A DNA stretch of 64,000 bases from Deltaproteobacteria bacterium. Its GTDB lineage: Bacteria; Desulfobacterota; Desulfobacteria; Desulfobacterales; QNYZ01. Positions 22,127 through 61,785 of the stretch are shown here, piece by piece. A program made the position numbers and the translations under genes. The first letter of the stretch is position 1. Each line of letters opens with the position of its first letter. A model generated the notes under the pieces. That model was not told where the DNA came from. It was given only the letters and a program-made list of their open reading frames with translations, and made no database searches. The DNA lies in the NCBI GenBank assembly GCA_003973265.1, contig QNYZ01000058.1, positions 8,079-72,078 on the forward strand, in the 5' to 3' direction.

Positions 22127-22203
<77 letters not shown>

Positions 22204-44056: not shown

Positions 44057-44165
44057 ATAATTATCATCGGGATATTCGCGGTCTTCTCCTAAACAGGGAA
44101 GGCCCCGGACGGTGGAGACATTTATAAAGCTTATATTGATTGGACAGACAATAAGGAGGGGCTCG

Positions 44166-45269
44166 ATGGCAGCTGTACCTGGAAAAATTATGACATGGCA
44201 GATGGTTCGGCCAACCACCCGGAACAGAGAGACCGGTGAGGTGTTACCGGGTAAACTGGAGAAAAAAGAATTACCGGTACCGGCGCTGAAAGAAGGGGAG
44301 GTGCTTGTGGAGGTGGCCGGCTGCGGGGTGTGCCATACGGACCTGGGATATTTTTATGATGGGGTTCCCACGGTATGTAAACCGCCCCTGACGCTGGGGC
44401 ATGAAATTTCTGGAACCGTGGTGGCCGGTGATGCGGCCTGGATTGGCAAAGAGGTGTTAATCCCGGCCGTGATGCCATGCCGAAAATGTCATCTGTGTAA
44501 AACCGGGCGGGGAAACCGCTGCCTGTCTCAGAAAATGCCGGGCAACAGTATCGGTATTTACGGGGGCTTTTCAAGTCATATTCCCGTTCCCTCGATTGAC
44601 CTTTGCGAGATAAAAAATCGCGGAGATTTTCCGCTTTCCCACCTGGCAGTGGTTGCCGATGCCGCCACGACGCCGTATCAGGCGGCCCGACGCGCCGATC
44701 TTCGTCTCGGTGACCATGTCATCGTCATCGGGGTCGGGGGGGTTGGCCAGTATATGGTCCAGGAAGCCAAAGCCCTGGGCGCGGCCATGGTCATTGCCAT
44801 CGACATTGATCAGGAACGGCTGGATCTGATGAAAAAATACGGTGCCGATGAAGTTATCAATGTGACTGGTAAAAAACCCCGCGATGTGGCCGGCGAAGTC
44901 AAGGCGATCCGCAAAGAGAAGGGGTTGCCCGCCCATGGCTGGAAGATTTTCGAGGCCACCGGATCAAAACCGGGCCAGGAGCTGGCTCTGACGCTGTTAA
45001 GCTTTACCGGTAAATTGATAATTATTGGATTCGGAATGCAGAAAGTTGAATATTCCATCAGCCGCCTGATGGCCTTTGACGCGGAGATTATCGGTACCTG
45101 GGGCTGTCTGCCAGAATACTATTCCCATGTCCTGTCGATGGTCCTTTCCGGAAAAATCGCCCTGTCGCCCTTTGTGCAGACCCGGCCCATGAGCACCATT
45201 GCCGATGTGTTTGAAGAAGCACATACCCAGTCGCCGGACCGGCGCATCATCCTGGAGCCGGACTTTTAA
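44166..45269 (+). CDS. bamQ: Zn-dependent MDR alcohol dehydrogenase, probable 6-hydroxycyclohex-1-ene-1-carbonyl-CoA dehydrogenase
   Basis: Start re-assigned to ATG 44166 (AAGGAGG at 44152-44158), giving 367 aa. It has the zinc ADH motifs GCGVCHTDL and GHEISG and a structural-zinc Cys cluster (CRKCHLCKTGRGNRC). The function is inferred from its position directly upstream of oah. Confidence 0.7.
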   Translation: MAAVPGKIMTWQMVRPTTRNRETGEVLPGKLEKKELPVPALKEGEVLVEVAGCGVCHTDLGYFYDGVPTVCKPPLTLGHEISGTVVAGDAAWIGKEVLIPAVMPCRKCHLCKTGRGNRCLSQKMPGNSIGIYGGFSSHIPVPSIDLCEIKNRGDFPLSHLAVVADAATTPYQAARRADLRLGDHVIVIGVGGVGQYMVQEAKALGAAMVIAIDIDQERLDLMKKYGADEVINVTGKKPRDVAGEVKAIRKEKGLPAHGWKIFEATGSKPGQELALTLLSFTGKLIIIGFGMQKVEYSISRLMAFDAEIIGTWGCLPEYYSHVLSMVLSGKIALSPFVQTRPMSTIADVFEEAHTQSPDRRIILEPDF

Positions 45270-45353
45270 AATGGCTGGCCTGCCGGTCGACTGGCTGATC
45301 GAGCGATCTATTCAACTAAAAAAACGAAACTGAACAACAACAAGGAGACAGAC

Positions 45354-46490
45354 ATGGCTTTAGACTGGATGCCGAGAGATAACGAACCCAAAGATCACGC
45401 CCTGCACCGGGATCCCCACTGGACCACGGAAGCCCCCGGGGTGGTATACGAAAAAAAACCCTTGACCGATCCCAGGGGGAATGTGGTGGAAGGGCTGTAT
45501 ACCGCCTGGATCCGCCTGAATAATCCCAAGCAGTATAATTCATACACAACCGATATGGTCAAAGGCGTCATTGCCGGGTTTGAAAATGCGTCTCTGGATC
45601 GGAGCGTGGTGGCCGTTGTCTTTACAGGAACCGGACCGTATGCGTTCTGTACCGGTGGTAATACCAGGGAATATTCCGAATATTATTCGAGAAGGCCCGA
45701 GGAATACGGCCAGTACATGGACCTGTTCAACCACATGGTCGATTCGATTCTCTCCTGCCATAAACCAACCATCTGCCGGGTCAACGGCATGCGGATTGCC
45801 GGCGGCCAGGAAATCGGTCTGGCGTGTGATCTGGCTATATCATCCGACCTGGCTGTTTTTGGCCAGGCCGGCCCCCGGCACGGCTCCTCCCCGGCCGGCG
45901 GTTCATCCGACTTTCTGCCCTGGTTTCTCACCATGGAAGATGCCATGTGGAATTGCGTATCCTGTGAAATGTGGTCGGCCTACAAGATGAAGATGAAAGG
46001 CATGATTACCAAGGTGGTCCCGGTGTTGAAAATAGACGGTCAATGGGTGAGAAATCCGACCGTTGAAACGGATAAGTATATCGATAACGGCGAGATTGTT
46101 TATGGCGAATATAAGGCCGGTCAGGCCTTTAAAGATGGTAAGGCACTTCTCAGAGCGCATCAGGCCGATGCCGATTTTGAACTGCTGGATAAAGAAGTTG
46201 ATAAAATAATCTGGAAATTTGCCAACCTTTTTCCCGGGTGCCTGGTCAAATCCATCGAGGATGTCCGTCAGAAAAAGAAATTTTTCTGGGATACCATGAA
46301 AAACGATCACCGGCACTGGCTGGCGGCCAACATGTCCAGCGAGGCGTTCCTGGGATTTGGTGCGTTTAATACCAAGAAAATCACCGGTCAGGATACCATC
46401 GATTTTATCAAGTTCCGCCAGAATGTGGCTGATGCCAGGGACTGGGATATGGACATGTTTGCCGAAGTGATGGGAAAACCAGAAGATTGA
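45354..46490 (+). CDS. bamA: 6-oxocyclohex-1-ene-1-carbonyl-CoA hydrolase (ring-opening enoyl-CoA hydratase family)
   Basis: 378-aa extended crotonase-fold protein (VVFTGTGPYAFCTGGN, GGQEIGLACDLAI). Size, the long C-terminal extension and its neighbours (had, bamB-I) fit Oah/BamA. Confidence 0.8.
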   Translation: MALDWMPRDNEPKDHALHRDPHWTTEAPGVVYEKKPLTDPRGNVVEGLYTAWIRLNNPKQYNSYTTDMVKGVIAGFENASLDRSVVAVVFTGTGPYAFCTGGNTREYSEYYSRRPEEYGQYMDLFNHMVDSILSCHKPTICRVNGMRIAGGQEIGLACDLAISSDLAVFGQAGPRHGSSPAGGSSDFLPWFLTMEDAMWNCVSCEMWSAYKMKMKGMITKVVPVLKIDGQWVRNPTVETDKYIDNGEIVYGEYKAGQAFKDGKALLRAHQADADFELLDKEVDKIIWKFANLFPGCLVKSIEDVRQKKKFFWDTMKNDHRHWLAANMSSEAFLGFGAFNTKKITGQDTIDFIKFRQNVADARDWDMDMFAEVMGKPED

Positions 46491-48135: not shown

Positions 48136-50109
48136 ATGAGGTACGCAGAAACAGGGTTTAATTTGGAAATAGATCTGACCCGGGGAAATATTGAAAAGGT
48201 GGCAACGGATCCGAAAGATACCGAGCTTTACCTGGGGGGGCTGGGAACAAACACCAAGATATTATGGGACAGGGTCCCCCCTGAAACAGACGCCTTTTCG
48301 CCCGAGAATCTTTTAATATTCGGGACGGGCCTGTTGTGCGGTACCGCTGCGACCGGTTGTAACCGGACCATTGTTTCCACCATTTCGCCGCAAACCAAAT
48401 TAATGGCATTTTCAATGATGGGCGGATACTGGGCACCGGAATTGAAATATGCCGGTTACGATAAGGTGGTCCTCCGCGGAAAATCACCGGATCTGGTTTA
48501 TATCTGGATCAACAATGATAAGGTCGAAATTCGCGATGCCTCTCATTTAAAGGGCAAGGGCGCGATTGAAACCGCATCGCTTCTGCAAAAGGAGTTAAAA
48601 GAACCCAAAGCCCAGGTAGCCGCCATCGGTCTGGCCGGAGAAAACCGGGTTTTTTATGCGTCCATCGAGCAGGGCCGTTCCAGTGCCAGCCGGGGCGGTA
48701 TTGGCGCGGTAATGGGTGACAAGAATGTCAAGGCGATCGTTGTTCGCGGTACCCAGGATATCAATATTGCCGATCCTGAAAAATTCATGGATCTCTGCTA
48801 TGAAGTAAACGACTATATCAAGTGGCGCCAGGAGAATCCCATTAAAGGGGTCATTCCGATTCTGGCCATCCTGGGCTCGCCCCAGGAAATGGCCATCCAT
48901 GACGAGCAGTGGCATACCGAAAACTTTTCATGGGGCAATGCCCGTACCCGCCGAAAAGGATTCTGGACCGACGAGGTATCTGAAGAGTGGCTGGAAACCA
49001 TGAACAAAGCCCGGACGCGTTTGATCAGTTGTTATAACTGTCCCATTGCCTGTGGGGCGACTATTTCATTGCCGGGGCTGCCGACTTATATGATGAAGTG
49101 TTTTACGAAACTGACCTATACCATGGCGGCCATGTCGAACCTGGAATTTGGTTTAACCATTGCCCAGCGGGCAACAGAGTATGGCGTGGATGGCTATTCC
49201 GCACCGCAGGTGATGGCGTTTGCCCTGGAACTTCTGGAAAACGGGATTTTATCGGATACGGATTTTCCGGACATGCCGGAAGACAATGAGGGCCGGCATT
49301 TCTACCTGCTTGATAAAATTGTCCGCCGGGAAGGGATTGGCGACGTGCTGGCCAATGGTACCCACTGGGCGGCCAAAGAGATCGGTAACGGGGCCGAGGA
49401 ATACGCCCATAATAATATTAAAAAACAGGAACAGCTGCCGCTCAAGCTCTCCATGCTGAACCCGATCTACTTTTTAATGTATTGTACCGGCGAAAAAATA
49501 AACATTACGCAGATTGAGGGTCAATTTCCCCAGGCTGCTTTTCCCAAGAGGGAGCAGCGGGAAAAATTTGTCAAAGACTGGTTCCAGGTTCCGGATGATA
49601 AGTTCAAGCAATACTTTCTGGACTGGGAACCCCGGGGGGAAAATTCGAATCCGTATTACCCCACGGTTGATATGACCTGCGATATTGTCGACTGGCAGGA
49701 GATGATGCACTATATCGATGATGCGCTGGGTATGTGTGCCGGGCTGTCATCCTTTCATATGAAACCCCCCTATCATATTCACAATTTTCCGCAGTTTATA
49801 ACTGCCGGTGCCGGTATTGAGATGAATGAGGAAAAACTGAAACAGGCGGCCAAGCGGTATCGGACGCTGCTCCGGGCATTTAATATCAACCGGGGGATGC
49901 GGCGAAAAGATGAAAAACCGCCCGAAGACCACTGGAAAAAGCGGTTTCCCGAGTTGGAAAAAGAGCTGCTGGATACCTACTACGTATATAAGGGATGGAA
50001 CGAAGAGGGGATTCCAACCAGAGAATCACTGCATGAGCTGGGCCTTGATTACGTGGCTGAAGATTTTATCTCAAGGGGAATTTTGACGGATGAGGGTAAA
50101 TCTTCCTGA
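48136..50109 (+). CDS. bamB: Class II benzoyl-CoA reductase active-site subunit BamB (tungsten-pterin aldehyde:ferredoxin oxidoreductase family)
   Basis: 657-aa AOR-family protein. Its N-terminus MRYAETGFNLEIDLTRGNIEKVATDPKDTELYLGGLGTNTKILWDRVPPE is very close to my recollection of Geobacter BamB. It is followed by bamC-I in canonical order. Confidence 0.9.
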   Translation: MRYAETGFNLEIDLTRGNIEKVATDPKDTELYLGGLGTNTKILWDRVPPETDAFSPENLLIFGTGLLCGTAATGCNRTIVSTISPQTKLMAFSMMGGYWAPELKYAGYDKVVLRGKSPDLVYIWINNDKVEIRDASHLKGKGAIETASLLQKELKEPKAQVAAIGLAGENRVFYASIEQGRSSASRGGIGAVMGDKNVKAIVVRGTQDINIADPEKFMDLCYEVNDYIKWRQENPIKGVIPILAILGSPQEMAIHDEQWHTENFSWGNARTRRKGFWTDEVSEEWLETMNKARTRLISCYNCPIACGATISLPGLPTYMMKCFTKLTYTMAAMSNLEFGLTIAQRATEYGVDGYSAPQVMAFALELLENGILSDTDFPDMPEDNEGRHFYLLDKIVRREGIGDVLANGTHWAAKEIGNGAEEYAHNNIKKQEQLPLKLSMLNPIYFLMYCTGEKINITQIEGQFPQAAFPKREQREKFVKDWFQVPDDKFKQYFLDWEPRGENSNPYYPTVDMTCDIVDWQEMMHYIDDALGMCAGLSSFHMKPPYHIHNFPQFITAGAGIEMNEEKLKQAAKRYRTLLRAFNINRGMRRKDEKPPEDHWKKRFPELEKELLDTYYVYKGWNEEGIPTRESLHELGLDYVAEDFISRGILTDEGKSS

Positions 50110-50160
50110 AAAGAGACGGCCTCAGATAAAGTGAAAGCATAGAGCACAAAGGAGTAAATT

Positions 50161-50697
50161 GTGACTGGTGAGAAAAAAAAGAAAATAATCAAGACCATCA
50201 GAATTGATGTGGATAAGTGTCATGGTTGCCGGGCGTGTGAGATGATATGCTCCGCTTTTCATGCCAAACCCAGATACAGCAGCAGTAATCCCGCCAGATC
50301 GCGGATTCGTGTTATCCGTGATCCGCTGGCGGATATTTATGTTCCGGTTTATGCGGGCGAATATACTGTTGCCGAATGTGCCGGCCGGGACAAGTATACC
50401 ATCAATGGTAAAGAATACTCCGAGTGCGCCTTTTGCCGGGCTTCCTGCCCGTCAAGAGCCGACTTTAAAGAACCCGATTCCGGTCTGCCGCTGAAATGTG
50501 ATATGTGCGAGGGCGAAGATGAACCGTTGTGCGTCAAATGGTGCACCGTTGATGCGCTCGTTGTTGAAGAAAGAGAAGAAGAAGTGGAGGAAGAGATCGA
50601 ACAGGAAGAACTGGAGGTCGGTCTGGAGGAATTGGCCAGTAAATATGGAATGAATACGATCATGGATGCCATTTCGCGATTATCCAAGAAGGACTGA
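50161..50697 (+). CDS. bamC: BamC, poly-[4Fe-4S] ferredoxin subunit
   Basis: GTG start with AAGGAG upstream. Cys clusters CHGCRACEMIC, CAFCRASCP and CDMC...C, with an acidic C-terminal tail. Confidence 0.85.
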   Translation: MTGEKKKKIIKTIRIDVDKCHGCRACEMICSAFHAKPRYSSSNPARSRIRVIRDPLADIYVPVYAGEYTVAECAGRDKYTINGKEYSECAFCRASCPSRADFKEPDSGLPLKCDMCEGEDEPLCVKWCTVDALVVEEREEEVEEEIEQEELEVGLEELASKYGMNTIMDAISRLSKKD

Positions 50698-50701
50698 ATC
50701 G

Positions 50702-50773
50702 TTTATTGGGTTTATTGAGTTTATTGAGTTTATTGGGTTCATTGGGTTCATTGGGTTTATTGGGTTTGTCGGG
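50702..50773. repeat. Direct tandem repeat, 9-bp unit TTTATTGGG (variants TTTATTGAG, TTCATTGGG, TTTGTCGGG) x8
   Basis: Eight head-to-tail copies read directly from the sequence, beginning 5 nt after the bamC stop, in the intergenic region before bamD. Confidence 0.95.
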
Positions 50774-50866
50774 TTAATTTAGGTTGTTACGTTGAGCGGC
50801 TTTTTTATTCTGTGATTGTATTAATCCGACCCGTTTACCCGTTGACTGAAGGAGATAGTAAAAAAA

Positions 50867-52018
50867 GTGGAAACAGTTGCTCCCTTCATAGAGGTCGTCG
50901 AAGAGATCAAAGAGGCCGGTGGAGAAATATTTAAGCTATGCTTTCAATGCGGATTGTGCGATGCGGTCTGTCCGTGGAACCGGGTTCGTGATTTCAGCAT
51001 GCGCAAACTTATCCGGGAAGCGGCCTTTGGATTAACCGAGATCGATGGCGAAGATCTCTGGCGCTGCACGACCTGCGGGAACTGTCCGACGCAGTGTCCC
51101 CGGGGGGTCAAGCAGATTGATGTGGCGGTTGCGCTGCGCCGTGTGGCAACCGAATACGAAGTTTTTCCTGCATCTGTCAAGTCGGCCAGAACAGCGCGGG
51201 CCAGCTTGATTTCCGAGGGGAACCCCCTTCAGGGAGAGCGGAAAAACCGCTCCCAATGGGCGAAGGATCAATCGATAAAACCGTTCAGCGAAGAGATGGA
51301 GGCGTTGTATTTTGTCGGGTGTTACTTAAGCTATGATCCCAGGATGAAAAAAGTGGCGGTGGCCACCGCCTCCATTCTGAAAAAAGCAGGTGTGGAATTC
51401 GGGATACTGGGCGATCGGGAAAGCTGCTGCGGAGAAAGCATCCGCAAGGCAGGCAGCGAAGAAGTATTTAAAACCCTGGCTAAGGATAACATCAAGACGT
51501 TTATCGAAAAAGGGGTCAAAAAGATCATCGTCTCTTCTCCCCATTGTTACCATACTTTTAAAAACGAATATCCTGAATTCATGGTCCACTTTGAAGTCGT
51601 TCACATGAACCAGTATCTAATGGACCTCATCGAAGACGGGCGGCTTGAATTGAAAGGGGAGTTTTCAAAAAGAGTCACCTACCACGATCCATGTTACCTG
51701 GGACGGCACAACGGCATTTACGATGAGCCCCGAAATATTTTGAACCGGGTGCCGGGACTGGAACTGGTTGAAATGGAAAATTTCAGGAAGAACAGCCTCT
51801 GCTGCGGGGGTGGCGGGGGGCGGATCTGGATGGATACCCCCAAGGAAGAACGGTTTTCCGATATCCGGCTGGAACAGGCCAAAGCGGCTGGCGCAAGCAT
51901 CCTCGCGACTTCCTGCCCATATTGTATTACCAACTTTGAGGAGAGCCGGTTGAATCTGGAATATGAAGACATTGTGGAAATTAAGGATATCACCGAGATC
52001 ATCAATGATATGCTTTAG
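50867..52018 (+). CDS. bamD: BamD, HdrD-like Fe-S protein with two CCG domains
   Basis: [12 protein letters not shown] and [12 protein letters not shown] ferredoxin motifs, plus two CCG-type cysteine-rich domains (CCGES..., DPCYLGR, CCGGGGG, SCPYC). GTG start with AAGGAGA upstream. Confidence 0.85.
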
Positions 52019-52086
52019 AAAGTAAACGCTCGTGCCTGCCGTTTAACCGGCTGATTCAGACATACTTAATTATCAGGAGAAAGAAC

Positions 52087-55000
52087 GTGGAAAACGAAGT
52101 ACTGCCAATCGAAAAGATCCAAGAACTTTCCGAAGTTCTCGGCGATAAAAACTTCGGCGATGTCATGGTTGTGGGCGGCGGAGTGAGCGGTATTCAGGCC
52201 TCACTCGATCTGGCCACGGCCGGATTTAAAGTCTACCTGGTTGAGAAGGGACCCAGCATCGGCGGTCATATGGCCCAGCTGGACAAGACCTTTCCTACCA
52301 ATGACTGTTCGATGTGAATTCTCTCTCCGAAACTGGTCGAGGTCGGCCGGCATCCAAACATTGAGGTTTTGACATTTACCGAAGTGGGAGAGGTAGAAGG
52401 GGAGAAGGGCGACTTTAAGGTCACCCTGGTCAAGAAGCCGCGCTATATCATTGAAGACAAGTGTACCGGCTGCACCACCTGTGTCGAATACTGCCCGGTG
52501 GAATATCCGGACCCGTTCAACCAGGAAATATCAAAAAATAAGGCCGTTCACGTTTATTTTTCCCAGGCGATTCCACTGGTCTCGTATATCGATGAAAGCT
52601 GCCTTTTCCTGAAAGAAAAAAAATGCGACATCTGCCGCCGGGTCTGTCAGACCGGGGCCATTGATTTTACCCAGACGACTGAAAAGACTGGAATAAACGT
52701 CGGCGCGATCATTCTATCCTCCGGTATCACGCCGTTTGATCCCGAAGTGAGGGATGAATATGGCTATACGAAGATGCAGAACGTGGTCACCAGTATGGAC
52801 TACGAGCGCTTATTATCTTCGACCGGGCCATACGAGGGTGAAGTGCGGCGGACGTCTGACAAAAAACATCCCAAAAAAATCGCGTGGCTTCAATGTGTCG
52901 GCTCCCGGCGGGTAACCGAAGGGGATAACAGCTATTGTTCCGGCGTATGCTGCACCTACACCCAGAAACAGGTCATTTTAACCAAAGACCACGATACCGA
53001 GGCCACATGTACGATTTTCCATAATGATATCCGTTCTTTTGGCAAGGATTTTGAGCGATACTTCCAGCGTGCCGAACAACTGCCCGGGGTAGAGTTTATC
53101 CGGAGCTATGCGTCTGTTGTCCGGGAGGTCCCGGAAAGTAAAAATGTGATTATCCGATATGCCACCGACAACGAAGGCGTTGTGGAACGGGAATTTGACC
53201 TGGTAGTGTTGTCGGTGGGACTGAGTCCGCCGGAGGATAACAAAAAATTAGCCGATATATTCGGAATTGAACTCAATGGATACGGATTTTGTGAAGCAGA
53301 TAGTGAAAATCCGATCAAAACCACTCAACCCGGTATCTTCGTCAGCGGTGCCTTCCAGGGGCCGACAGACATTCCCGAATCGGTTTTTACGGCCAGTGGC
53401 GCGGGGGCCCAGTGTGGCGAGCTTTTGGATTACCGGCGGGGCAAGCTGTCTAAAGAAAGGGCCTATCCGCCGGAAAAAGATGTCTCCGGAGAAAAACCCC
53501 GGATTGGCGTTTTTGTCTGTCATTGCGGGGCCAATATCTCAAGCGTCGTGGATGTACCATCCTCGGTTGAGTATGCCTTGAGCCTGCCCAATGTCGTTTT
53601 TGCCAAGGAGCAGTTGTTTTCATGTGCGACCAATTCAGCCCAGGAAATTACCGATCTGGCCAAAGAAAAGGGACTCAACCGTGTGGTGATTGCCGCCTGC
53701 TCTCCTCGAACGCTGGAGCCGCTGTTTCGGGACACCCTTCGTGAGGCGGGGTTGAATCAATACTATTGTGATATGGCCAATATCCGGGAACACTGCTCCT
53801 GGGTGCATGCCAAGCAAAAAGATGAGGCCACGGAAAAGGCGCAGGCTATTATCCGGATGTCAGTGGCCCGGACGGCCCATCTGGAACCATTAAAGGAATT
53901 TGACCTGCCGGTAAATAAAACGGCCCTGGTCGTGGGCGGTGGCATTGCCGGTATGACCTGCGCGCTTTCCATTGCCAATCAAGGCCATGATGTTCATCTC
54001 ATTGAAAAAGAGAAAGAACTGGGCGGAATGGCCTGGCATATTCCCACTACGCTGGAAGGGCTGGATGTGCACGCGTTTTTAAAAGAGACGATCGGCAAAG
54101 TGTATGCCAATCCGCGAATCCATGTCTCCCACGAGGCCACGATCAAATCGGTTACCGGCTATGTGGGCAATTTCGTCACCACGCTGGAAACGGAAGGGCG
54201 GCATAAGGAGATCAAGCATGGGGCCTCCGTCATCGCCATCGGGGCCGAGGAATCCGTTCCGGCTGAATACCTCTATGGTGAAAACGATCGGGTCGTCACC
54301 CACGTGGAGCTGGGCGAGCAGATCGCCCAGGGGGCGGAAACGGTGGCCAGGGCCGAGAATCTGGTGATGATCCAGTGTGTGGGCTGTCGCAATGAAGATC
54401 GAAATTACTGCAGCCGGGTGTGTTGCAGTCATGCGGTCAAAAATGCGCTGAGTTTAAAAAAGCTAAACCCGGCGATGCATGTCTATATCCTGTTTCGGGA
54501 TATGCGAACCTATGGGTTCAGGGAAGAAGCGTACCGGGAAGCGTCGGAAAAAGGGGTTCGGTTTATTCGCTATGATGTGGAAGACAAGCCCATGGTAGAA
54601 GCCGTGGAAGCGGGCGGAAAGTCTCTTTTGAGAGTCATGGTGACAGATCCGATTTTAGGCCAGCGCCTCGAATTAGACGCCGATATCCTTTCTCTGGCGG
54701 CAGCCGTGATTCCTTCCCGGCATACCGAAGAGATCGCCGGGTTATACAAGGTGACACTTAGCCCGGATAACTTTTTTAAAGAAGCCCATGTTAAATTAAA
54801 ACCCGTTGAATTTGCCACAGACGGCGTGTTTCTCTGCGGGATGGCCCACTACCCCAAGCATATCCCGGAAACGATCAATCAGGCCTATGGCGCGGCCGGC
54901 CGGGTATTAACCCTGCTTTCCAGGGATACCGTGGTCGCGTCCGGTTCGGTCTGCGAAGTTAAGGAGTATGATTGTGTCTCCTGCGGGGCCTGTATCACAG

Positions 55001-55224
55001 CCTGCACTTATGAAGCCATCGAATTTGTTGATACGCCCGGGGGCAAGAAAGCCTGGGTCAACCCGATTCTCTGCAAGGGTGATGGGGTCTGCAATGCCAA
55101 GTGTCCGACCAATGCCATTGTTTTAAAACATTTTACCAATGACGCCCTTTTCGGCCAGATTGATGCAGCCATTACCGCTGAAGATATGATCGAACAGATT
55201 GATGCCGTGGCCGAAAAAGTGTAA
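52087..55224 (+). CDS. bamE: BamE, HdrA-like FAD/Fe-S protein (two HdrA modules plus ferredoxin domains), predicted selenoprotein with an in-frame UGA
   Basis: ORFs 52087-52317 and 52369-55224 are in the same frame, with no other stop between them. The junction reads [30 protein letters not shown], the HdrA CSMCIL motif with TGA at the Cys position. Two GxGxxG FAD sites are present ([20 protein letters not shown]). Confidence 0.85.
52315..52317 (+). other. In-frame UGA read as selenocysteine (BamE)
   Basis: The TGA replaces the conserved Cys of the HdrA motif [10 protein letters not shown] stem-loop CTGGTCG-AGGT-CGGCCGG (52333-52350) starts 16 nt downstream and is a candidate SECIS element. 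Confidence 0.75.
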
Positions 55225-55276
55225 ACGGGATAGAATCGATTTCAAACGTGATTGAGCAACCAAAAGGTGAGAGCAA

Positions 55277-56044
55277 ATGAGTCTAAATTCTGAATTTAAA
55301 CCAAAACTACTGGGTTTTGTCTGTCACTGGTGAGTGTATGGGGCCGCGGACCTGGCTGGAGTTTCCAGACTGCAATATACCACAGATATCCGTTTGATTC
55401 GTGTCATGTGTTCGGGCCGGGTCGACCTGGAATTTATATTGAGGGCATTTTTGAACGGGCAGGATGGCGTTTTTATTGGAGGCTGCCGCCTGGATGAGTG
55501 TAATTATGTGACCCATGGAAATTACGATGCCCTGGGCAATACCTATCTGTGCAAGAAACTGCTCGAAAATATCGGCATTGATCCGGACCGGTTGAGGATT
55601 GAATTTATGTCCGGGGCCGATGGCAACATCCTGGCCGATGTCACCTCTGATTTTGCCAACGAGGTAAAGGCGATGGGGCCGCTTGGCAAAGACGAGGGAA
55701 TGGATACCGATGCGGTGCAGCGCCGCCTTAACGCGGTGATGCGCCTGGTTCCCTATATCAAACTGGTGGAAAGAGAGCGGCTGCGGGTGCCCCGCAAAAC
55801 CAGAAAGGCGTACGACGAATTTTTTACCAGTGACGAATTCAACCGGCTGTTTGATGAACTGATTGCCGATAAACTGGCGGTCAGCCGGGTAATGCTGCTG
55901 CTGGAAGAAAAACCCCGGTCGACCGGAGAAATCGTTGAGGCACTGGGGTGGGACCCGTCAGATGTTTCTAAGCATATGAATCGTTCCTCGCAACATGGAT
56001 TGGTTCACTACGATGAAGGCCTTAAACGATATGCGTTGGGATAA
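55277..56044 (+). CDS. bamF: BamF, MvhD-like (methyl-viologen-reducing hydrogenase delta subunit family) protein, predicted selenoprotein
   Basis: ATG 55277 is preceded by AAAGGTGAGAG. The product reads MSLNSEFKPKLLGFVCHW-TGA-VYGAADLAGVSRLQY, the MvhD CxWC-YxGADLAG motif with TGA at the second Cys. The listed ORF 55334-56044 is only the part after the TGA. Confidence 0.8.
55331..55333 (+). other. In-frame UGA read as selenocysteine (BamF)
   Basis: The TGA is in frame with ATG 55277 and with ORF 55334-56044. A small hairpin CTGGA-GTT-TCCAG lies at 55356-55368. Confidence 0.7.
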
Positions 56045-56098: not shown

Positions 56099-56551
56099 AT
56101 GGATATAGATAGAATCGATCAAATTATTGACAGGCACCAGTGCGAGGCCAGTTCTCTTATTCAGATTTTGCTGGATATTCAAAGTGAGAACCATTGGCTT
56201 TCCAAAGAAGCCCTGACGCGGGTGGGCGAGAAATTACAGGTACCATTTACCCGGATACAGCACATTGCGACCTTTTACAAAGCGTTCAGCCTGGTTCCCA
56301 AGGGGCGCCATGAAGTACATATCTGTGTGGGAACGGCCTGTCATGTCCGGGGTGCCACGCGCATTCTCGATACGGTTAAAGATGTGACGGGTATTATGCC
56401 GGGCGAGACGGACATGGATTTGAAGTTCAGCCTGGAGACGGTGAATTGTCTTGGGTGCTGTGCCCTGGGGCCGGTCGTGGAAATTGACGGAAAAGTTCAT
56501 GGCAAGATGTCGCCGGGAGAGACGGCAGATGTATTAAAAAACTATGAATAG
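56099..56551 (+). CDS. bamG: BamG, NuoE-like [2Fe-2S] thioredoxin-fold ferredoxin
   Basis: NuoE/HoxE pattern with Cys ligands in ICVGTACHVRG and VNCLGCCALGP. Confidence 0.85.
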   Translation: MDIDRIDQIIDRHQCEASSLIQILLDIQSENHWLSKEALTRVGEKLQVPFTRIQHIATFYKAFSLVPKGRHEVHICVGTACHVRGATRILDTVKDVTGIMPGETDMDLKFSLETVNCLGCCALGPVVEIDGKVHGKMSPGETADVLKNYE

Positions 56552-56569
56552 GGTAATGAAGGTTAGATT

Positions 56570-58492
56570 ATGTCGCAGATAAATTCGCCCGCTGAATTAG
56601 ACGCTTTCAGAAAGGGCATCCTGGCAAAAAGAGATCCTGAAACGCCTTGCATTTCAATTTGTGCGGGTGCCGGATGTATTGCTTCCGGCGCCGATGAAGT
56701 GATCGCCGCATTTGAGGCCGAGATCGGTGCACAAGGGCTGGCGGCGAACGTGGTTACCAAAGGGACGGGATGTCCCGGTTTTTGCGAAAGAGGGCCGATC
56801 GTGGTGATTTATCCCGAGGAGATCTGCTACCTCGGCGTCACCGCTGAAGATGTTCCTGAAATTATAACGGAGACCATCAAAGAGAAGAGGGTGGTTGATC
56901 GCCTGCTTTTTGAAGATCCGGCTACTGGCGAAAAGGCGGTCCATGAGTCGGATATCCCCTTTTACCGGAATCAGGAACGAAACGTTATCTGCAACAATAT
57001 CAAGATCGATTCCAAAAGCATTGACGATTATCTGGCCCTCGATGGCTATTCGGCCCTGGCCAAGGCGCTCACCGGGATGACCGATGAAGAAGTTTTGGAA
57101 GAAGTCAAAAAATCCAATCTTAGAGGGCGGGGTGGTGCCGGGTTTCCCGCAGGGATTAAGTGGGAGGGATCCCGCAACGCGGCTGAGAAGACAAAATACG
57201 TGATCGTCAACGCCGATGAGGGTGACCCGGGGGCCTTTATGGATCGGGCCTTGCTGGAGGGCAATCCGCATTCTATTCTTGAGGGGCTGATTATCGGCGG
57301 CTATGCCATTGGCGCTCATGAGGGCTATATCTATGTACGGCAGGAGTATCCCCTGGCCGTCGAGAATATCACCCTTGCCATCGAGCAGGCAGGCGCATAT
57401 GGTTTGATTGGGAAAAATATTCTTGGGTCCGGATTTGATTTCAAAGTGATCGTGCACCAGGGGGCCGGCGCATTTGTCTGCGGTGAATCGACTGCCTTGA
57501 TGACGGCCCTGGAGGGGCGGGTGGGTGAACCCCGGCCCAAATACGTTCGCTCCAATATCAAGGGGTTGTGGAATCGCCCCAGCGTTCTGAATAATGTGGA
57601 GACCTGGGCCAACGTTCCGTTGATCATCAATAAAGGCGCCGACTGGTTTACCCAAATCGGAACCGAGGGAAGCAAGGGGACAAAGATTTTTTCCCTGGTC
57701 GGCAAGATCAACAACACCGGCCTGGTTGAAGTTCCCATGGGCATCAGCCTGAAAGATATTATTTTCAAGATCGGCGGCGGGATTCCCAATGGCAAGGCTT
57801 TTAAGGCGGTGCAGACCGGTGGCCCCTCGGGCGGATGCATCCCGGCCGACCAGTTGGATTTGGAAGTCGGCTTTGATGAACTGACCCGGGCCGGTTCCAT
57901 GATGGGGTCGGGTGGTATGATCGTCATGGATGAAGATACCTGTATGGTGGATGTGGCCCGGTACTTCATCAATTTTCTGACCGATGAATCGTGCGGTAAG
58001 TGTGTTCCCTGCCGGGAAGGTCTGCGGCAGATGCATAAGATTTTGACCGATATCACAGAGGGAAACGGGAAAGAAGGCGATATTGAGCGGCTGGAGCAGT
58101 TGGCGGAAGCGGCCCGGGAGGCATCCTTGTGTGCGCTGGGTAAGAGCGCGCCAAACCCGTTTTTCAGTACCCTGCGCTATTTCAGAGATGAATACGAGGC
58201 GCATATCAGGGAAAAAAGATGTCCGGCCCTGTCCTGCAAGGAACTGATTGCCTACTATATTGATCCGGATAAGTGCAGAGCCTGTATGATCTGCGCAAGG
58301 AAATGTCCGGTCAATGCGATTGAGGGCGGAAAGAAAACAATCCATGTGGTTGACCAGGAAAAATGTACCCGTTGCGGTACCTGTTTTGAAGTGTGCCCCG
58401 CGCGATTTAATGCGGTAACAAAAATATCCGGTCAGCCGGTTCCGGCGCCGATTCCCGTTAAAGAGCGAACGATCAGCAGAAAGAGTAAATAA
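56570..58492 (+). CDS. bamH: BamH, NuoF-like NAD(H)/FMN/Fe-S subunit
   Basis: N-terminal [2Fe-2S] thioredoxin-like domain, NuoF core (GRGGAGFPAGIKW, NADEGDPGAF, ESCGKCVPCREG) and two C-terminal 4Fe-4S motifs (CRACMICARKCP, CTRCGTCFEVCP). Confidence 0.9.
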   Translation: MSQINSPAELDAFRKGILAKRDPETPCISICAGAGCIASGADEVIAAFEAEIGAQGLAANVVTKGTGCPGFCERGPIVVIYPEEICYLGVTAEDVPEIITETIKEKRVVDRLLFEDPATGEKAVHESDIPFYRNQERNVICNNIKIDSKSIDDYLALDGYSALAKALTGMTDEEVLEEVKKSNLRGRGGAGFPAGIKWEGSRNAAEKTKYVIVNADEGDPGAFMDRALLEGNPHSILEGLIIGGYAIGAHEGYIYVRQEYPLAVENITLAIEQAGAYGLIGKNILGSGFDFKVIVHQGAGAFVCGESTALMTALEGRVGEPRPKYVRSNIKGLWNRPSVLNNVETWANVPLIINKGADWFTQIGTEGSKGTKIFSLVGKINNTGLVEVPMGISLKDIIFKIGGGIPNGKAFKAVQTGGPSGGCIPADQLDLEVGFDELTRAGSMMGSGGMIVMDEDTCMVDVARYFINFLTDESCGKCVPCREGLRQMHKILTDITEGNGKEGDIERLEQLAEAAREASLCALGKSAPNPFFSTLRYFRDEYEAHIREKRCPALSCKELIAYYIDPDKCRACMICARKCPVNAIEGGKKTIHVVDQEKCTRCGTCFEVCPARFNAVTKISGQPVPAPIPVKERTISRKSK

Positions 58493-58496
58493 AAAA

Positions 58497-59090
58497 ATGA
58501 GTGATTTTCATTTAGAGATTGACGGAAACAAGGTGGGCGTAAAAGAGGGAGAGACAATCCTTGAGGCCGCCCAGCAGGCGGGGATATACATCCCTACCCT
58601 TTGTCACCACGAAAAGCTGGAACCGTTTGGCGGCTGCCGGATGTGCATCGTAGAAGTAGAAAGTCGCGGACGCACAAAGCTGGTTGTCTCCTGCGTGTAC
58701 CCGGCCGAAGCCGGTCTGGTCGTCAGAACCCGGTCAGAAAAGATCGATCGCATCCGTAAAACGATTCTGGAGCTGTTAATGGCCCATGCGCCGGATTCGC
58801 CGCCGTTGGTGGCGCTGGCTAAGGAGTATGGTGCCAATAAAGACCAGTTTGAAAAAGAGTCTTCATTCTGCATTCATTGCGGGTTGTGTGTCAGGTATTG
58901 TGAAGAGGTTAAGAAGAATTATGCAGTCGGATTTGTTGACCGGGGCGTACGCAAAGAGATCAGTTTCATTCCGGAGATTGCGGCCAAAGTGTGCAATGAC
59001 TGCAAGGAATGCTTTCCTCTTTGCCCCACATCGTATCTCCAGGCAACATTTGTTTTAACAGAATCTCTTGCGTTTCCAACGGTGCCATAA
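58497..59090 (+). CDS. bamI: BamI, NuoG N-terminal-like [2Fe-2S]/[4Fe-4S] protein
   Basis: Plant-type 2Fe-2S motif (CHHEKLEPFGGCRMC) followed by CIHCGLCVRYC and CNDCKECFPLCP. Confidence 0.85.
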   Translation: MSDFHLEIDGNKVGVKEGETILEAAQQAGIYIPTLCHHEKLEPFGGCRMCIVEVESRGRTKLVVSCVYPAEAGLVVRTRSEKIDRIRKTILELLMAHAPDSPPLVALAKEYGANKDQFEKESSFCIHCGLCVRYCEEVKKNYAVGFVDRGVRKEISFIPEIAAKVCNDCKECFPLCPTSYLQATFVLTESLAFPTVP

Positions 59091-59128
59091 ATCGGCGGCA
59101 TCACCTTGCTTTTCAGGGAATAAACCAG

Positions 59129-59941
59129 TTGAGTGCAGGAAAGAATACTGAATCTTGTCAGGTATATCGGTGCAAAAAGGGCGCCTGCCGGCCGCATGCA
59201 CTTGATTTGATCGGGGAAGAACCGCTTCTGATCCGGATTGATGAAAAGCCCTATTCCGTGGTGATGCGAACCCCGGGAGAAGAACTGTTTCATGCCGCCG
59301 GATTCTGCCTGGGAGAGGGGATTGCGGACACCCCGGATGATTTTGCCGCCATCGGGTATTGTAAAGATCTCGATCCGAATGTGATTGATGTCCGGCTGAC
59401 GCCCAAACGGCGTGAACAGATACCGGATCTTCTTAAACGGCGGGGCTTTGTCAGCCAGACCAGTTGCGGTATCTGCGGCAAGGAGATGGTCAAGGATCTG
59501 TACCAGATATTGACACCGGCAGCAGATGGCTACCAGGTGAAGATTGGCCGGATTTTTGACTGTATCGAAAAGCTGTCCGACAATCAGAGCTACTATCAGA
59601 CTACCCGGGGGTCTCACGCGGCCATTATTTTTAACGACCAGCTGGAAATGATTTCTTTTGCCGAGGATGTCGGTCGGCATAACGCGCTGGATAAAACCAT
59701 CGGCAAGGCGTTCATGGCCCGGAAGTTATCTGCGGCCAGTATACTGGTCATCACCTCCCGGCTCAGTTATGAACTGGTTCAACGCGCCGCCCGGGCGCAC
59801 CTGCCGATGATGATCAGTAATTCGCGTCCCACCGCACTGGCCGCTGAGATGGGGCGGGCGCTGAACATGACCCTGGCTTTTCCGGCCAAAAAATCTGAAT
59901 TGATCATCGTTTGCGGCCAGGATCGCATCGTGATAGAATAA
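59129..59941 (+). CDS. fdhD: FdhD-like sulfurtransferase (formate dehydrogenase accessory family); start uncertain
   Basis: LIGEEPLLIRIDEKPYSVVMRTPGEELFHAAGFCLGEGI, the Cys loop SQTSCGICG, and GRHNALDK. The listed start 59009 would overlap bamI by 82 nt. TTG 59129 with AGGGA upstream gives about 270 aa, the usual FdhD length. Confidence 0.75.
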   Translation: MSAGKNTESCQVYRCKKGACRPHALDLIGEEPLLIRIDEKPYSVVMRTPGEELFHAAGFCLGEGIADTPDDFAAIGYCKDLDPNVIDVRLTPKRREQIPDLLKRRGFVSQTSCGICGKEMVKDLYQILTPAADGYQVKIGRIFDCIEKLSDNQSYYQTTRGSHAAIIFNDQLEMISFAEDVGRHNALDKTIGKAFMARKLSAASILVITSRLSYELVQRAARAHLPMMISNSRPTALAAEMGRALNMTLAFPAKKSELIIVCGQDRIVIE

Positions 59942-59973: not shown

Positions 59974-60756
59974 GTGAAGATTCTCACAACTGTTAAAAAA
60001 GTAGTGGATGTTGAACTGAACATGCACGTCAAGGATGGCGCGCTGGTTGAAGACGGGATGCAATATGTCACCAACGCCTGGGATGAAAATGCGGTGGAAA
60101 CGGCGTCCCAGTTGAAAGAAAACAACGGGGCGGAAACCACACTGGTGAGCATCGGCGGCGGAGATAACACCGATATTATCCGCCGATGCTATGCCATGGG
60201 TATTGAAAACGGCATCCATGTCGATGATCCGGCACTGGAAAAGGCCGATTCATCAATCTATGCGAAAGTACTGCAAAAAGTGTATGAAGCGGGCGACTAC
60301 GACCTTGTCATTACCGGCAAGCAGGCCCAGGATACGGACAGCGGCCAGACGGGCATTATCCTGGCCGAATATCTGGGACTGCCGTGTGTCAGCAATGTCA
60401 TCGCCCTGGAAGTGATCGATGACCAGCATATCAAAGTGTCCAGGTCCGGGGATACCGGAACCGAGATCGTTGAATTAACGCTACCGGCCGTTATTTCGGT
60501 CGATGTCAGCATCAATGAACCGCGGCTGCCCCAGATGCGGGGCATCATGATGGCTAAGAAAAAGAAGATTACGGAGATGGATCTGGCGGCCCTGGGTACA
60601 TCGGCCGATGAAGTCGGCGCCGATGCTCCCAAATCGGAAATTATCGAATTTATGGCATCCCAGTCGCGCCAGGCCGGGCAGAAATTTGAAGGCGATGCTG
60701 CTGAAATTACCGCCAAAGTGGTCGATCTCCTGGCCAACGAAGCCAAGGTTATCTAG
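59974..60756 (+). CDS. etfB: Electron transfer flavoprotein beta subunit
   Basis: GTG start with AGGAGGA upstream. MKILTTVKKVVD N-terminus, with LVITGKQAQDTDSGQTG and EPRLPQMRGIMMAKKK typical of EtfB. Confidence 0.9.
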   Translation: MKILTTVKKVVDVELNMHVKDGALVEDGMQYVTNAWDENAVETASQLKENNGAETTLVSIGGGDNTDIIRRCYAMGIENGIHVDDPALEKADSSIYAKVLQKVYEAGDYDLVITGKQAQDTDSGQTGIILAEYLGLPCVSNVIALEVIDDQHIKVSRSGDTGTEIVELTLPAVISVDVSINEPRLPQMRGIMMAKKKKITEMDLAALGTSADEVGADAPKSEIIEFMASQSRQAGQKFEGDAAEITAKVVDLLANEAKVI

Positions 60757-60819
60757 CTTGCGAAGATTATTTGAGATCAGTATTTGACACGAAAACGATT
60801 TAGATAAGGAAAACATATC

Positions 60820-61785
60820 ATGGCTAAAGTACTCGTCGTTGCGGAAATCAAGCAGGGTGTGCTGAAAAGCAGTACGCCCGAACTGTTATCAAAAGCAAGA
60901 GCCATTGGTGCTTCGACCGCCGTGGTGGCCATTGGAAGCAATATTGAATCGCTTGTCCCTGAACTGGCAGGTGCCGGATCTGACACCCAGTATATTGCCG
61001 ATGATCCCGGCCTGGAGCTGTTTTCGGCCGGACCGGTTGCGGCATGCGTGGTGGATGCGGCCAGGCAATTCGGGGCCAGTCTGATCTGGTTCGGTTTTTC
61101 TGAAAGCAGTAAAGCGGTGGCGCCGCGGGTGGCCGCCCAGCTGGATGCGGCCTGTGCCACCGAAATCAACGATATCTCGCTCAATGGAGATCAGATCGAG
61201 GTCATCCGGCCCGCCATCACCAATAAGGTGATGCAGCGTGTTAAGGTCAATACTGAGAAACTGGTAGCAGTTGTCAGAGCCGGTGCATTTGAGGCGACGG
61301 AAGGGATCTCCGGAACGGAGAATGTCGTTAAACTCTCCCCGCCCGAGATGGATTTAAAAGCATTGGTCAGGGAAATATTAACGGATGCGAGCGGAGAGAT
61401 TGACCTGGCCGATGCCGATATTGTTGTTTCAGTCGGGAGAGGCGCCAAAGACCAGGCCGGCATTGACCTGGTAAGGGGGCTGGCCGATGATTTACACGCC
61501 GGCTTCGGCTCTTCCCGTGCCATGGTTGACGGCGGGTTCATGGCGCACAACAAGCAGGTGGGCCAGACCGGGAAAATTGTTGCCCCGACCTTGTATATGG
61601 CCATCGGCATCTCGGGGGCCATTCAGCATCTGGCCGGGATGAGCGGTTCAAAGGTGATCCTGGCGGTGAATAAAGATCCCGAAGCACCGATCTTTAACGT
61701 AGCGGATTATGGCATTGTCGGTGACCTCTTCGAGGTCGTACCGATCCTGCAGGAAGAGATCCGTAAAATTAAAGCTAAGCAATGA
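60820..61785 (+). CDS. etfA: Electron transfer flavoprotein alpha subunit
   Basis: C-terminal FAD-binding signature VSVGRGA...SRAMVDGGF...QVGQTGKIVAPTLYMAIGISGAIQHLAGM. Confidence 0.9.
   Translation: MAKVLVVAEIKQGVLKSSTPELLSKARAIGASTAVVAIGSNIESLVPELAGAGSDTQYIADDPGLELFSAGPVAACVVDAARQFGASLIWFGFSESSKAVAPRVAAQLDAACATEINDISLNGDQIEVIRPAITNKVMQRVKVNTEKLVAVVRAGAFEATEGISGTENVVKLSPPEMDLKALVREILTDASGEIDLADADIVVSVGRGAKDQAGIDLVRGLADDLHAGFGSSRAMVDGGFMAHNKQVGQTGKIVAPTLYMAIGISGAIQHLAGMSGSKVILAVNKDPEAPIFNVADYGIVGDLFEVVPILQEEIRKIKAKQ

Follow-up and report, generated by a model that had tools for sequence, protein, structure and literature searches.

The established bacterial mechanism of selenocysteine (Sec) insertion has its paradigm in E. 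coli fdhF, the SelB-bound SECIS element of which is the canonical one for bacteria. Among the described systems that come closest to the locus presented here are several HdrA-like proteins. BamE of Desulfococcus multivorans DSM 2059 is the product of one of five genes in which a Sec-encoding UGA lies upstream of a SECIS (PMC5109826). Because the UGA splits the gene, D. multivorans bamE carries two locus tags, dmul_C24500/10; selA, selB and selD are present in the same organism (PMC5109826). In the HdrA of Methanococcus maripaludis (PDB 9SFI/9T1S), Sec197 lies between cluster A3 and the FAD, where it forms a bond with a Cys, and a part in a thiol-selenol electron relay has been proposed for it (PMC13518236). 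Finally, cryo-EM of the 1-MDa BCRII complex of Geobacter metallireducens has revealed a Cys59-Cys62 disulfide in BamE, beside the bifurcating FAD and 3.4 A from cluster E3, as well as Sec19 in BamF; it was proposed that the disulfide passes on the low-potential electron of the flavin, via cluster E3, to the tungsten subunit BamB (bioRxiv 10.64898/2026.04.10.717634). The Geobacter selenoproteome list contains FrhD/MvhD and no HdrA.

Here we describe a bamE gene from an uncultured organism, found in a stretch of DNA of 64 kb (the window), in which all of the features discussed lie on the plus strand. Our analysis indicates that this bamE is very probably one selenoprotein gene, with the UGA at codon 77 read as Sec to give a BamE of 1045 residues. 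Sec is already known in the BamE family, and the window bamE is an ordinary further case. Going by the published description, the D. multivorans protein is the equivalent subunit of a class II benzoyl-CoA reductase, from a Desulfobacterales sulfate reducer that, unlike the window organism, is cultured. M. maripaludis HdrA has a homologous TrxR-like FAD domain and the motif FPTxDCxM[U]ILAPK, but it is an archaeal protein with a single HdrA module that serves heterodisulfide/CO2 reduction, whereas the window BamE would serve aromatic ring reduction. The archaeal SECIS also lies in the untranslated region, so that the coding sequence is unconstrained and has KMV where the window protein has KLVEVGR. 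With G. metallireducens the window shares the operon order bamBCDEFGHI and the position of Sec19 in BamF, but in place of the Sec of the window BamE the Geobacter protein has a Cys, as matched to Cys59/Cys62 by motif and spacing. Since the Geobacter BamE carries Cys and no HdrA figures in the selenoproteome, the model enzyme is of the minority Cys type among the close relatives of the window. An earlier note on this DNA, made from the sequence alone, had held that Geobacter BamE was predicted to contain Sec; this was incorrect, as the Geobacter Sec sits in BamF.

The bamE reading frame, its product and its neighbourhood

As the earlier note had claimed, bamE (52087-55224) is a single reading frame with 1045 sense codons, running from a GTG at 52087 to a TAA that ends at 55224, and its sole internal stop is the TGA at 52315-52317, which is codon 77. 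An AGGAG ribosome-binding site is found 7 nt 5' of the GTG. The two listed ORFs, at 52087-52317 (76 aa) and 52369-55224 (951 aa, TTG start), have a common frame, and the 51 nt separating them constitute 17 codons free of stops. The TGA lies within the motif FPTNDCSM[U] and is followed directly by the codons for ILSPK; within the C-S-M-U motif, Sec77 is predicted to pair with Cys74, encoded by the TGT at 52306-52308. Motif and spacing match Cys74 to Cys59 of G. metallireducens BamE and to the Cys that is bonded to Sec197 in M. maripaludis HdrA. Alignment of the window BamE to its orthologues by tblastn spans residues 1-1045, and comparative analysis indicates that the reading frame past the UGA is kept under purifying selection.

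For the comparison of codon 77 we used 81 orthologous copies, which represent 80 further species of several phyla, the window's own species being absent and the best match being 84% identical. TGA is present in 78 of the copies and TGC or TGT in 3, in the identical column, which is the alternation of Cys and Sec that the earlier note had proposed to look for among orthologues. Cys74 is invariant in the unique Sec-type sequences (78/78). Furthermore, X197 of PDB 9sfi_A, the Sec197 of HdrA, and Cys197 of 5odc_A are both aligned with window residue 77, and the Cys-type homologues of BamE are continuous proteins. Scanning the window for other long frames split by TGA yielded bamE and bamF as the only convincing cases. 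Reassignment of TGA in the genetic code was also considered and rejected, because TGA terminates 17 of the 49 ordinary genes of the window.

Pfam analysis of the window BamE identified Fer4 domains and two FAD motifs, one at residues 25-63 and the other at about 613-650, and three stretches of the protein were matched by HdrA models of NCBIfam. The architecture is double HdrA-like, about 1000 aa in length, with two FAD Rossmann modules and ferredoxin domains. HdrA structures match residues 26-443 with an E value of 1e-120, and the NCBIfam HdrA scores fall below cut-off (907.6 vs 1100 for NF040770; 706.3 vs 1400 for NF041778); by these profiles, the window BamE is classed as a homologue of HdrA and not as HdrA proper. 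Its predicted role is that of a double HdrA-like FAD/Fe-S electron-transfer subunit of class II (W/Se) benzoyl-CoA reductase.

The gene sits in what is, by annotation, a complete bamBCDEFGHI cluster accompanied by had and oah. Upstream in the same operon, at 48136-52018, are bamB (tungsten AOR-like), bamC (Fe-S) and bamD (HdrD-like CCG protein), recognized by the Pfam families AFOR_N/AFOR_C, Fer4 and CCG. Downstream, at 56099-59090, bamG, bamH and bamI encode a confurcation module that is NuoE-, NuoF- and NuoG/HoxU-like in Pfam and NCBIfam, and ETF genes come after the bam cluster. The had and oah (bamA) genes, for downstream steps of the benzoyl-CoA pathway, are located at 44112-46490 and score above the equivalog cut-offs (TIGR03201, 489 bits against 338.65; TIGR03200, 566.6 bits against 464.45).

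Predicted SECIS hairpins in bamE and bamF

The stem-loop with a GGU-containing loop that had been pointed out at 52333-52350 is real. It has a 7-bp stem (CUGGUCG/CGGCCGG in the RNA), formed by the arms CTGGTCG at 52333-52339 and CGGCCGG at 52344-52350, and the loop AGGU (AGGT, 52340-52343), and it begins 15 nt 3' of the UGA, after a spacer (52318-52332) made up of the codons I-L-S-P-K. We interpret it as a predicted bacterial SECIS. Published bSECIS criteria specify a loop of 3-9 nt, a stem of 4-16 bp, a G among the first two loop nucleotides, a UGA-to-loop distance of 16-37 nt and a minimum free energy (MFE) of <=-7.5 kcal/mol (PMC13188914). The earlier note had marked this region for a bacterial SECIS test, and the hairpin falls within all of these bounds: the loop has 4 nt, with G at position 2 and then another G, the stem has 7 bp, the distance from UGA to loop is 22 nt, and the hairpin is itself the MFE structure, at -10.7 kcal/mol. 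Like the fdhF SECIS of E. coli, it is a stem-loop of the coding sequence just 3' of the UGA and has a small apical loop containing G/U; unlike that element, to which it has no sequence similarity, it shows no evident bulged U or long lower helix in its predicted form. In the protein, the 18 nt of the SECIS dictate the peptide LVEVGR.

Folded as a single sequence, the hairpin does no better than dinucleotide shuffles (z ~0), and for this reason it is not beyond chance when taken alone. The comparative evidence for the predicted structure is far beyond chance. The hairpin 18-mer occurs once in the window, where 0.08 matches would be expected even with 3 mismatches allowed, and it recurs after the TGA, at fixed spacing, in 75 copies of BamE from relatives, representing 74 species loci. 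The search for it allowed G or A at stem position 32 and covered 207 loci, across which no occurrence was found outside the BamE site. All 78 TGA-bearing copies have the hairpin, set off by a spacer of exactly 15 nt, with the synonymous sites of the spacer free (0.7-1.5 bits); over the six codons of the hairpin (nt +19 to +36) the synonymous entropy is zero, while the flanks have 0.7-2.1 bits. Stem pairing is kept in all 497 stem cells, with 3 compensatory cells, and the pair changes are C-G to A-U, G-C to C-G and U-G to U-A. The observed pairing values were matched by 0/500 shuffles, and slid registers were at most 58% paired.

As a control we used Cys-type genes (113 unique metagenomic genes), which display normal synonymous variation. 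The stem can form in 12 of the 113, and their mean MFE is -3.6 kcal/mol vs -11.0 kcal/mol for the Sec-type genes. These patterns indicate that the hairpin is selected at the nucleotide level only in UGA-bearing genes. A remnant SECIS as a general feature of Cys-type genes was considered and dropped, because so few of the metagenomic ones form the stem; of the 3 genomic Cys-type BamE copies, 2 do form a weak hairpin at the corresponding register. Rfam searches returned no SECIS match, whether over the entire window at gathering score or over 52000-55700 with E values of up to 10; as Rfam covers the diverse SECIS elements of bacteria poorly, this has no weight against function.

A second predicted Sec codon is found in the next gene, bamF (55277-56044; 255 codons), which encodes an MvhD/FlpD-like protein with a C-terminal ArsR-type HTH. 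The frame starts at the ATG at 55277, preceded by an AGGTGA ribosome-binding site, and has an in-frame TGA at 55331-55333 (residue 19) in the context GFVCHW[U]VYGAADLAG; the FlpD match of Pfam begins at ORF residue 2, corresponding to profile position 11. Among 80 BamF-like copies, codon 19 is TGA in 78; the other 2 have TGT/TGC. The predicted SECIS hairpin of this gene, CUGGA-GUU-UCCAG, lies at 55356-55368, where codons +8 to +12 have low synonymous entropy and the pairs are 96-100% conserved; one of the loci (L026) has a compensatory change from U-A to G-C. The window BamF resembles VhuD and the Geobacter BamF in having its predicted Sec in a CxW[U] motif by the [2Fe-2S] site, and differs from selenoproteins of the MvhD/VhuD/FrhD family in the extra C-terminal ArsR-type HTH domain.

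Alternative readings of the UGA codon

An in-frame stop that splits bamE, so that automatic callers give two ORFs, could mean that a nonsense mutation has inactivated the gene and that the downstream frame is decaying. Such a pseudogene is extremely improbable, however, given that the identical TGA is found in 78/81 copies from 80 species, that strong purifying selection persists on both sides of it, with synonymous variation, that the entire bam operon is intact and that a dedicated hairpin accompanies the TGA; conservation of this kind, as read from the sequences, refutes the pseudogene in practice. There is scarcely more to be said for two genuine genes, encoding a FAD-binding peptide of 76 aa and a protein of 951 aa that starts at the TTG at 52369-52371. 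Both the ORF lists and the public gene calls do give these products, the mis-splitting that the earlier note had expected of automatic annotators, and a weak GAGG is present 5' of the TTG. But this TTG, an internal Leu codon of bamE and a false start of the ORF and gene callers, is not kept as a start: the orthologues have CTG, CTC, TTG, CTT, CTA or TTA at this codon. Nor do they have any conserved start codon for the downstream piece, the called start of which differs between database gene calls (products of 926-952 aa). The 17 codons in between are conserved at the protein level, and the Cys-type homologues are continuous. Moreover, two genes would sever the GxGxxG Rossmann beta-alpha-beta motif from its FAD domain, since the 76-aa piece contains the FAD Rossmann motif and the 968-aa piece the remaining HdrA fold.

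That TGA is one base away from TGC and TGT, and that the source is a metagenome assembly, might suggest a sequencing or assembly error at a true Cys codon. We consider the probability of this negligible: a distinct assembly, which over 18.9 kb departs from the window by 1 mismatch and one 9-nt indel, has TGA at both the bamE and the bamF position, codon 77 is TGA in 78 other copies, and the window has the hairpin and peptide of the Sec type rather than the Cys-type IESPKF[IV]EC.RH. Read-through of the UGA independent of SelB (near-cognate Trp/Cys), or partial termination, with the hairpin serving for pausing or mRNA stability, is very unlikely. It would agree with the results of our search for the Sec machinery, in which ARAGORN was run, Pfam was applied to all large window ORFs and identical contigs extended the search about 10 kb both ways; no selA, selB, selD or tRNA-Sec was found in the 64-kb window or about 10 kb past either end, and ARAGORN reported only tRNA-Arg in the window. 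It would also exploit the fact that the function of the hairpin is one that we infer. Against it, the hairpin fits the bSECIS constraints throughout, those on the loop G and on spacing included, and is strictly linked to TGA; in the structure of M. maripaludis HdrA, Sec is resolved at the homologous position; D. multivorans, with its Sec-type BamE, has selA, selB and selD (PMC5109826); and bamF is arranged alike, at the Sec19 position of the Geobacter enzyme structure. Recoding of the UGA, which the earlier note had preferred to a pseudogene or two genes, is thus supported by the shared TGA, the TGA-linked hairpin, the alignment with Sec197, the second Sec codon and hairpin in bamF, the lack of a conserved downstream start and the expected mis-splitting in public gene calls.

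Proposed role of Sec77 and its meaning for the BamE family

The mechanism that we propose starts from what the sequences show: the mRNA has the UGA at codon 77 and, 15 nt on, the 7-bp hairpin with its AGGU loop, in a frame that runs on through the UGA and has no conserved restart codon. By analogy with the bacterial mechanism, SelB-GTP-Sec-tRNA(Sec) would bind the apical loop of the hairpin with the ribosome at the UGA; Sec would be inserted there, and translation would go on to the 1045-residue BamE. The bamF message would be recoded likewise at codon 19. Homologues suggest that Sec77 and Cys74 would form a redox-active selenenylsulfide beside the bifurcating FAD, in the first HdrA-like module, where the pair would replace the Cys59-Cys62 disulfide of Geobacter BamE and, likewise, the Cys-Sec197 pair of M. 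maripaludis HdrA.

In a tentative reading, held with less than even confidence and taken further below, the 18-nt SECIS is invariant in sequence, beyond structure, across several phyla, with the protein diverged to about 70% identity. This invariance would point to sequence-specific recognition by SelB or to a recent horizontal spread of the cluster.

The practical effect of these findings is in annotation. Of the 120 closest BamE entries among public proteins, 107 are calls of 926-952 aa with a truncated N terminus; they are missing both the motif for FAD binding and the C-x-x-U redox site, and in bamF calls residues 1-19 are likewise missing. The predicted catalytic selenol is therefore missed by gene-centric surveys of anaerobic aromatic degradation, and by structure predictions based on such entries.

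The known picture of HdrA-family selenoproteins is unchanged by this locus. What the comparison does is to place selenium, in most close relatives, where two 2026 cryo-EM studies put a proposed thiol/selenol relay by the bifurcating flavin, and a Sec-type BamE would make a natural comparison for the Cys-type Geobacter enzyme. As a tentative reading, which we hold with less than even confidence, the Sec-type BamE (C-x-x-U) may be prevalent, and perhaps ancestral, in class II benzoyl-CoA reductases, with the C-x-x-C of Geobacter as the exception. If this is true, the low-potential electron from the bifurcating flavin would normally travel via a selenenylsulfide and not a disulfide.

The bamE frame and its operon

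Translation of 52087-55224 yields 1045 sense codons in one frame, with the TGA at 52315-52317 as the sole internal stop, as the earlier note had claimed; this observation is solid from the window sequence by itself. In the ORF list the gene is split into two pieces of common frame, 52087-52317 (76 aa, GTG start) and 52369-55224 (951 aa, TTG start). Pfam analysis placed the FAD Rossmann motif in the 76-aa piece, with the other part of the first HdrA-like module, the second FAD module and the ferredoxin domains falling in the 968-aa remainder; neither piece makes sense alone. Reassignment of the genetic code was ruled out, because TGA is the ordinary terminator of 17 of the 49 window genes.

The source organism is uncultured. 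An ENA metagenome contig, TREM19-1 scaffold_74 (SAMN09060585), aligns with the window over 18.9 kb with one mismatch and one 9-nt indel in the bamC-bamD intergenic region (50710-50718), a sign that it is a separate assembly or comes from a strain variant, and it has the same bamE TGA. The public calls on this contig give bamF as 236 aa and bamE as 76 aa plus 951 aa, the mis-splitting that had been foreseen for automatic annotators.

bamE is placed within a complete benzoyl-CoA degradation cluster: had (44112-45269; TIGR03201, 489 bits against a cut-off of 339), oah/bamA (45354-46490; TIGR03200, 567 bits against 464), the AOR-type bamB (48136-50109), then bamC and bamD (CCG domains), bamE, the MvhD/FlpD-like bamF, the NuoE-, NuoF- and NuoG-like bamG, bamH and bamI and, in the 3' part, an FdhD-like gene followed by ETF beta and alpha genes. 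The FdhD/NarQ-family gene, directly 3' of bamI, is 59129-59941 (270 aa) in the public call and 59009-59941 (310 aa, overlapping bamI) in the ORF list; its product may be a sulfur-transfer chaperone maturing the BamB tungsten cofactor. Beyond the ETF genes (59974-61785), a 702-aa Fe-S/CCG protein, at about 61948-64000, runs off the window end; it is whole in a relative locus, L085 (11129-13237). Elsewhere, a tyrosine recombinase gene (XerC/D-like; 17891-18787, minus strand) lies a few kb from tRNA-Arg(TCT) (22127-22203, minus strand), the sole tRNA gene of the window, in which no further mobile-element sign was seen.

A hairpin linked to the bamE TGA

The stem-loop reported 3' of the UGA is present (plus strand; 5' arm CTGGTCG, 52333-52339; loop AGGT, 52340-52343; 3' arm CGGCCGG, 52344-52350) and is the minimum-free-energy (MFE) fold of the 51 nt past the UGA, at -10.7 kcal/mol. 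Judged on the window sequence alone it is not yet above chance, its energy having no advantage over dinucleotide shuffles (z about 0), and an Rfam scan for SECIS matched no family to it. The bacterial SECIS consensus has an apical loop of 3-9 nt with a G within the first two positions, usually then G or U, a stem of 4-16 bp, a UGA-to-loop distance of 16-37 nt and an MFE <= -7.5 kcal/mol (PMC13188914). With its 4-nt AGGU loop, 7-bp stem and 22-nt spacing, the bamE hairpin lies within this consensus in loop, stem, spacing and MFE.

Of the 120 database entries closest to BamE in a protein search, 107 (78-99% identity) have lengths of 926-952 aa, without the N-terminus; the other 13 are full-length (1025-1047 aa, about 72% identity), have Cys at the Sec position and continue differently downstream, with CIESPKF[VI]EC.RH. 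A BamE scan with one genome per species gave 80 loci, from MAGs labelled Desulfobacterales, Syntrophales, Bacillota, Chloroflexota and others, with a few cultured strains (e.g. Desulfosarcina variabilis, Desulfosporosinus lacus). Cys/Sec alternation was indeed found at the aligned codon, which is TGA in 78 of 81 BamE copies, TGC in two and TGT in one.

The 18 nt CTGGTCGAGGTCGGCCGG begin exactly 15 nt past the TGA in TGA-type BamE copies. Allowing G or A at stem position 32, this 18-mer was found in 75 related copies, from 74 species loci, and had no other occurrence in the 207 fetched loci; the window has it a single time, where 0.08 matches would be expected when 3 mismatches are tolerated. 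The six hairpin codons (CTG GTC GAG GTC GGC CGG) have a synonymous-codon entropy of 0 to 0.17 bits, and most flanking codons, including the five spacer codons from UGA to stem, one of 0.7 to 2.1 bits. Across 71 distinct sequences, 497 of 497 cells of the 7-bp helix are paired, with two C-G to A-U changes (L026, L051), one G-C to C-G change (L027) and a U-G to U-A change, present in five distinct sequences (six copies), that replaces Gly with Asp in the protein. None of 500 shuffles matches the observed paired fraction or covariation score, and slid registers pair at most 58% of cells.

The Cys-type control comprised 113 unique sequences from JGI metagenomes, fetched by the Cys-type peptide pattern. 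Their homologous codons display ordinary synonymous variation (0.76-2.11 bits), all seven stem pairs are possible in only 12, and nt 13-45 fold at -3.6 kcal/mol on average, versus -11.0 kcal/mol in Sec-type genes. Since synonymous sites are free and the stem is rare in Cys-type genes, the hairpin and the lack of synonymous change are features of the TGA, not of the protein.

One relative locus, L076, has two Sec-type BamE copies within about 10 kb (2884 and 13631), both with TGA and hairpin. Another, L072 (1847-1894), is on a contig binned as Candidatus Bathyarchaeota and has a bacterial-type BamE with TGA and a bacterial in-ORF SECIS hairpin; because an archaeon is not expected to read a bacterial SECIS, mis-binning or horizontal transfer is the probable explanation.

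A second in-frame TGA in bamF

From its ATG at 55277, bamF (55277-56044) reads MSLNSEFKPKLLGFVCHW*VYGAADLAG, the TGA (55331-55333) being codon 19 (GFVCHW[U]VYGAADLAG), where Geobacter BamF has its Sec19; TGA is found there in 78 of 80 BamF-like copies. The gene has its own conserved hairpin, CUGGA-GUU-UCCAG (55356-55368), in which synonymous entropy is low and L026 shows a compensatory change. ORF and gene callers begin bamF at 55334 (236 aa) and so lose the first 19 residues, including Cys16-x-x-Sec19 of the C-H-W-U motif. Finding two independent predicted Sec codons in the same operon, with conserved hairpins that differ from each other, argues strongly, if indirectly, for Sec decoding by the organism. 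No tRNA-Sec was found in the 64-kb window, and no sel gene in the window or in roughly 10 kb beyond either end.

BamF also has a C-terminal ArsR-type HTH (HTH_5/HTH_20; residues 184-225 of the 236-aa ORF, 55334-56044) joined to its MvhD-like domain, a fusion shared with Geobacter bamF (PMC1924859). The Sec/Cys state changes independently in the two proteins: L035 has Cys in BamE (871) and Sec in BamF (3866), and both proteins are of the Cys type in L067 and L075. Two Sec-type BamF copies, both with TGA and hairpin, lie within about 10 kb in L056 (3303 and 5465). In L021 (13174) and L053 (13173), bamE is followed by a divergent MvhD-like gene, FLCTW[U]AYAAADLAGVSRMQY, which may use a different SECIS, since the TGA is present without the bamF hairpin sequence.

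Probable selenocysteine in BamE and its alternatives

Residue 77 of BamE aligns with X197 of PDB 9sfi_A and Cys197 of 5odc_A, in the motif FPTxDC[SA][MI][U/C]ILAPK. In 9SFI, the M. maripaludis Hdr-Vhu-Fwd assembly, Sec197 lies bonded to a Cys in the space from cluster A3 to the FAD, and has been proposed as a thiol-selenol electron relay (PMC13518236). This confirms the earlier note's statement that HdrA is a selenoprotein in Methanococcus. Its statement on a predicted selenocysteine in Geobacter BamE did not hold: the structure has Cys in BamE, where the window gene would have Sec, and Sec19 in BamF, and the G. metallireducens selenoproteome lists FrhD (MvhD-like) and not HdrA (PMC1794560). 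A cryo-EM study of G. metallireducens BCRII places a Cys59-Cys62 disulfide of BamE at 3.4 A from cluster E3 and at 13.3 A from the bifurcating FAD, and proposes it as the carrier of the low-potential electron on its way to BamB (bioRxiv 10.64898/2026.04.10.717634); from motif and spacing, we infer that this pair corresponds to Cys74/Sec77 of the window protein.

The comparative data support selenocysteine as the meaning of the bamE TGA, and the hairpin as its bacterial SECIS. That bamE is a pseudogene or two separate genes, as its split annotation would have it, is very unlikely: the TGA and both flanks are conserved and no restart codon is, which upholds the recoding originally put forward. 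A sequencing error is also very unlikely, given the same TGA in the second assembly and in 78 other copies, and the presence of the Sec-type hairpin and peptide in the window. Read-through independent of SelB would leave the UGA-linked, SECIS-fitting hairpin unexplained and is likewise very unlikely.

Selenocysteine in BamE is already known from Desulfococcus multivorans, where a Sec-UGA with SECIS, as in the window bamE, has been published and selA, selB and selD are present (PMC5109826); the window gene adds another member. Three further outcomes are of some value: the extent of BamE mis-annotation, the nucleotide invariance of the putative BamE SECIS across phyla, and the fact that, in the sample of close relatives, the Cys type of the Geobacter model enzyme is in the minority.
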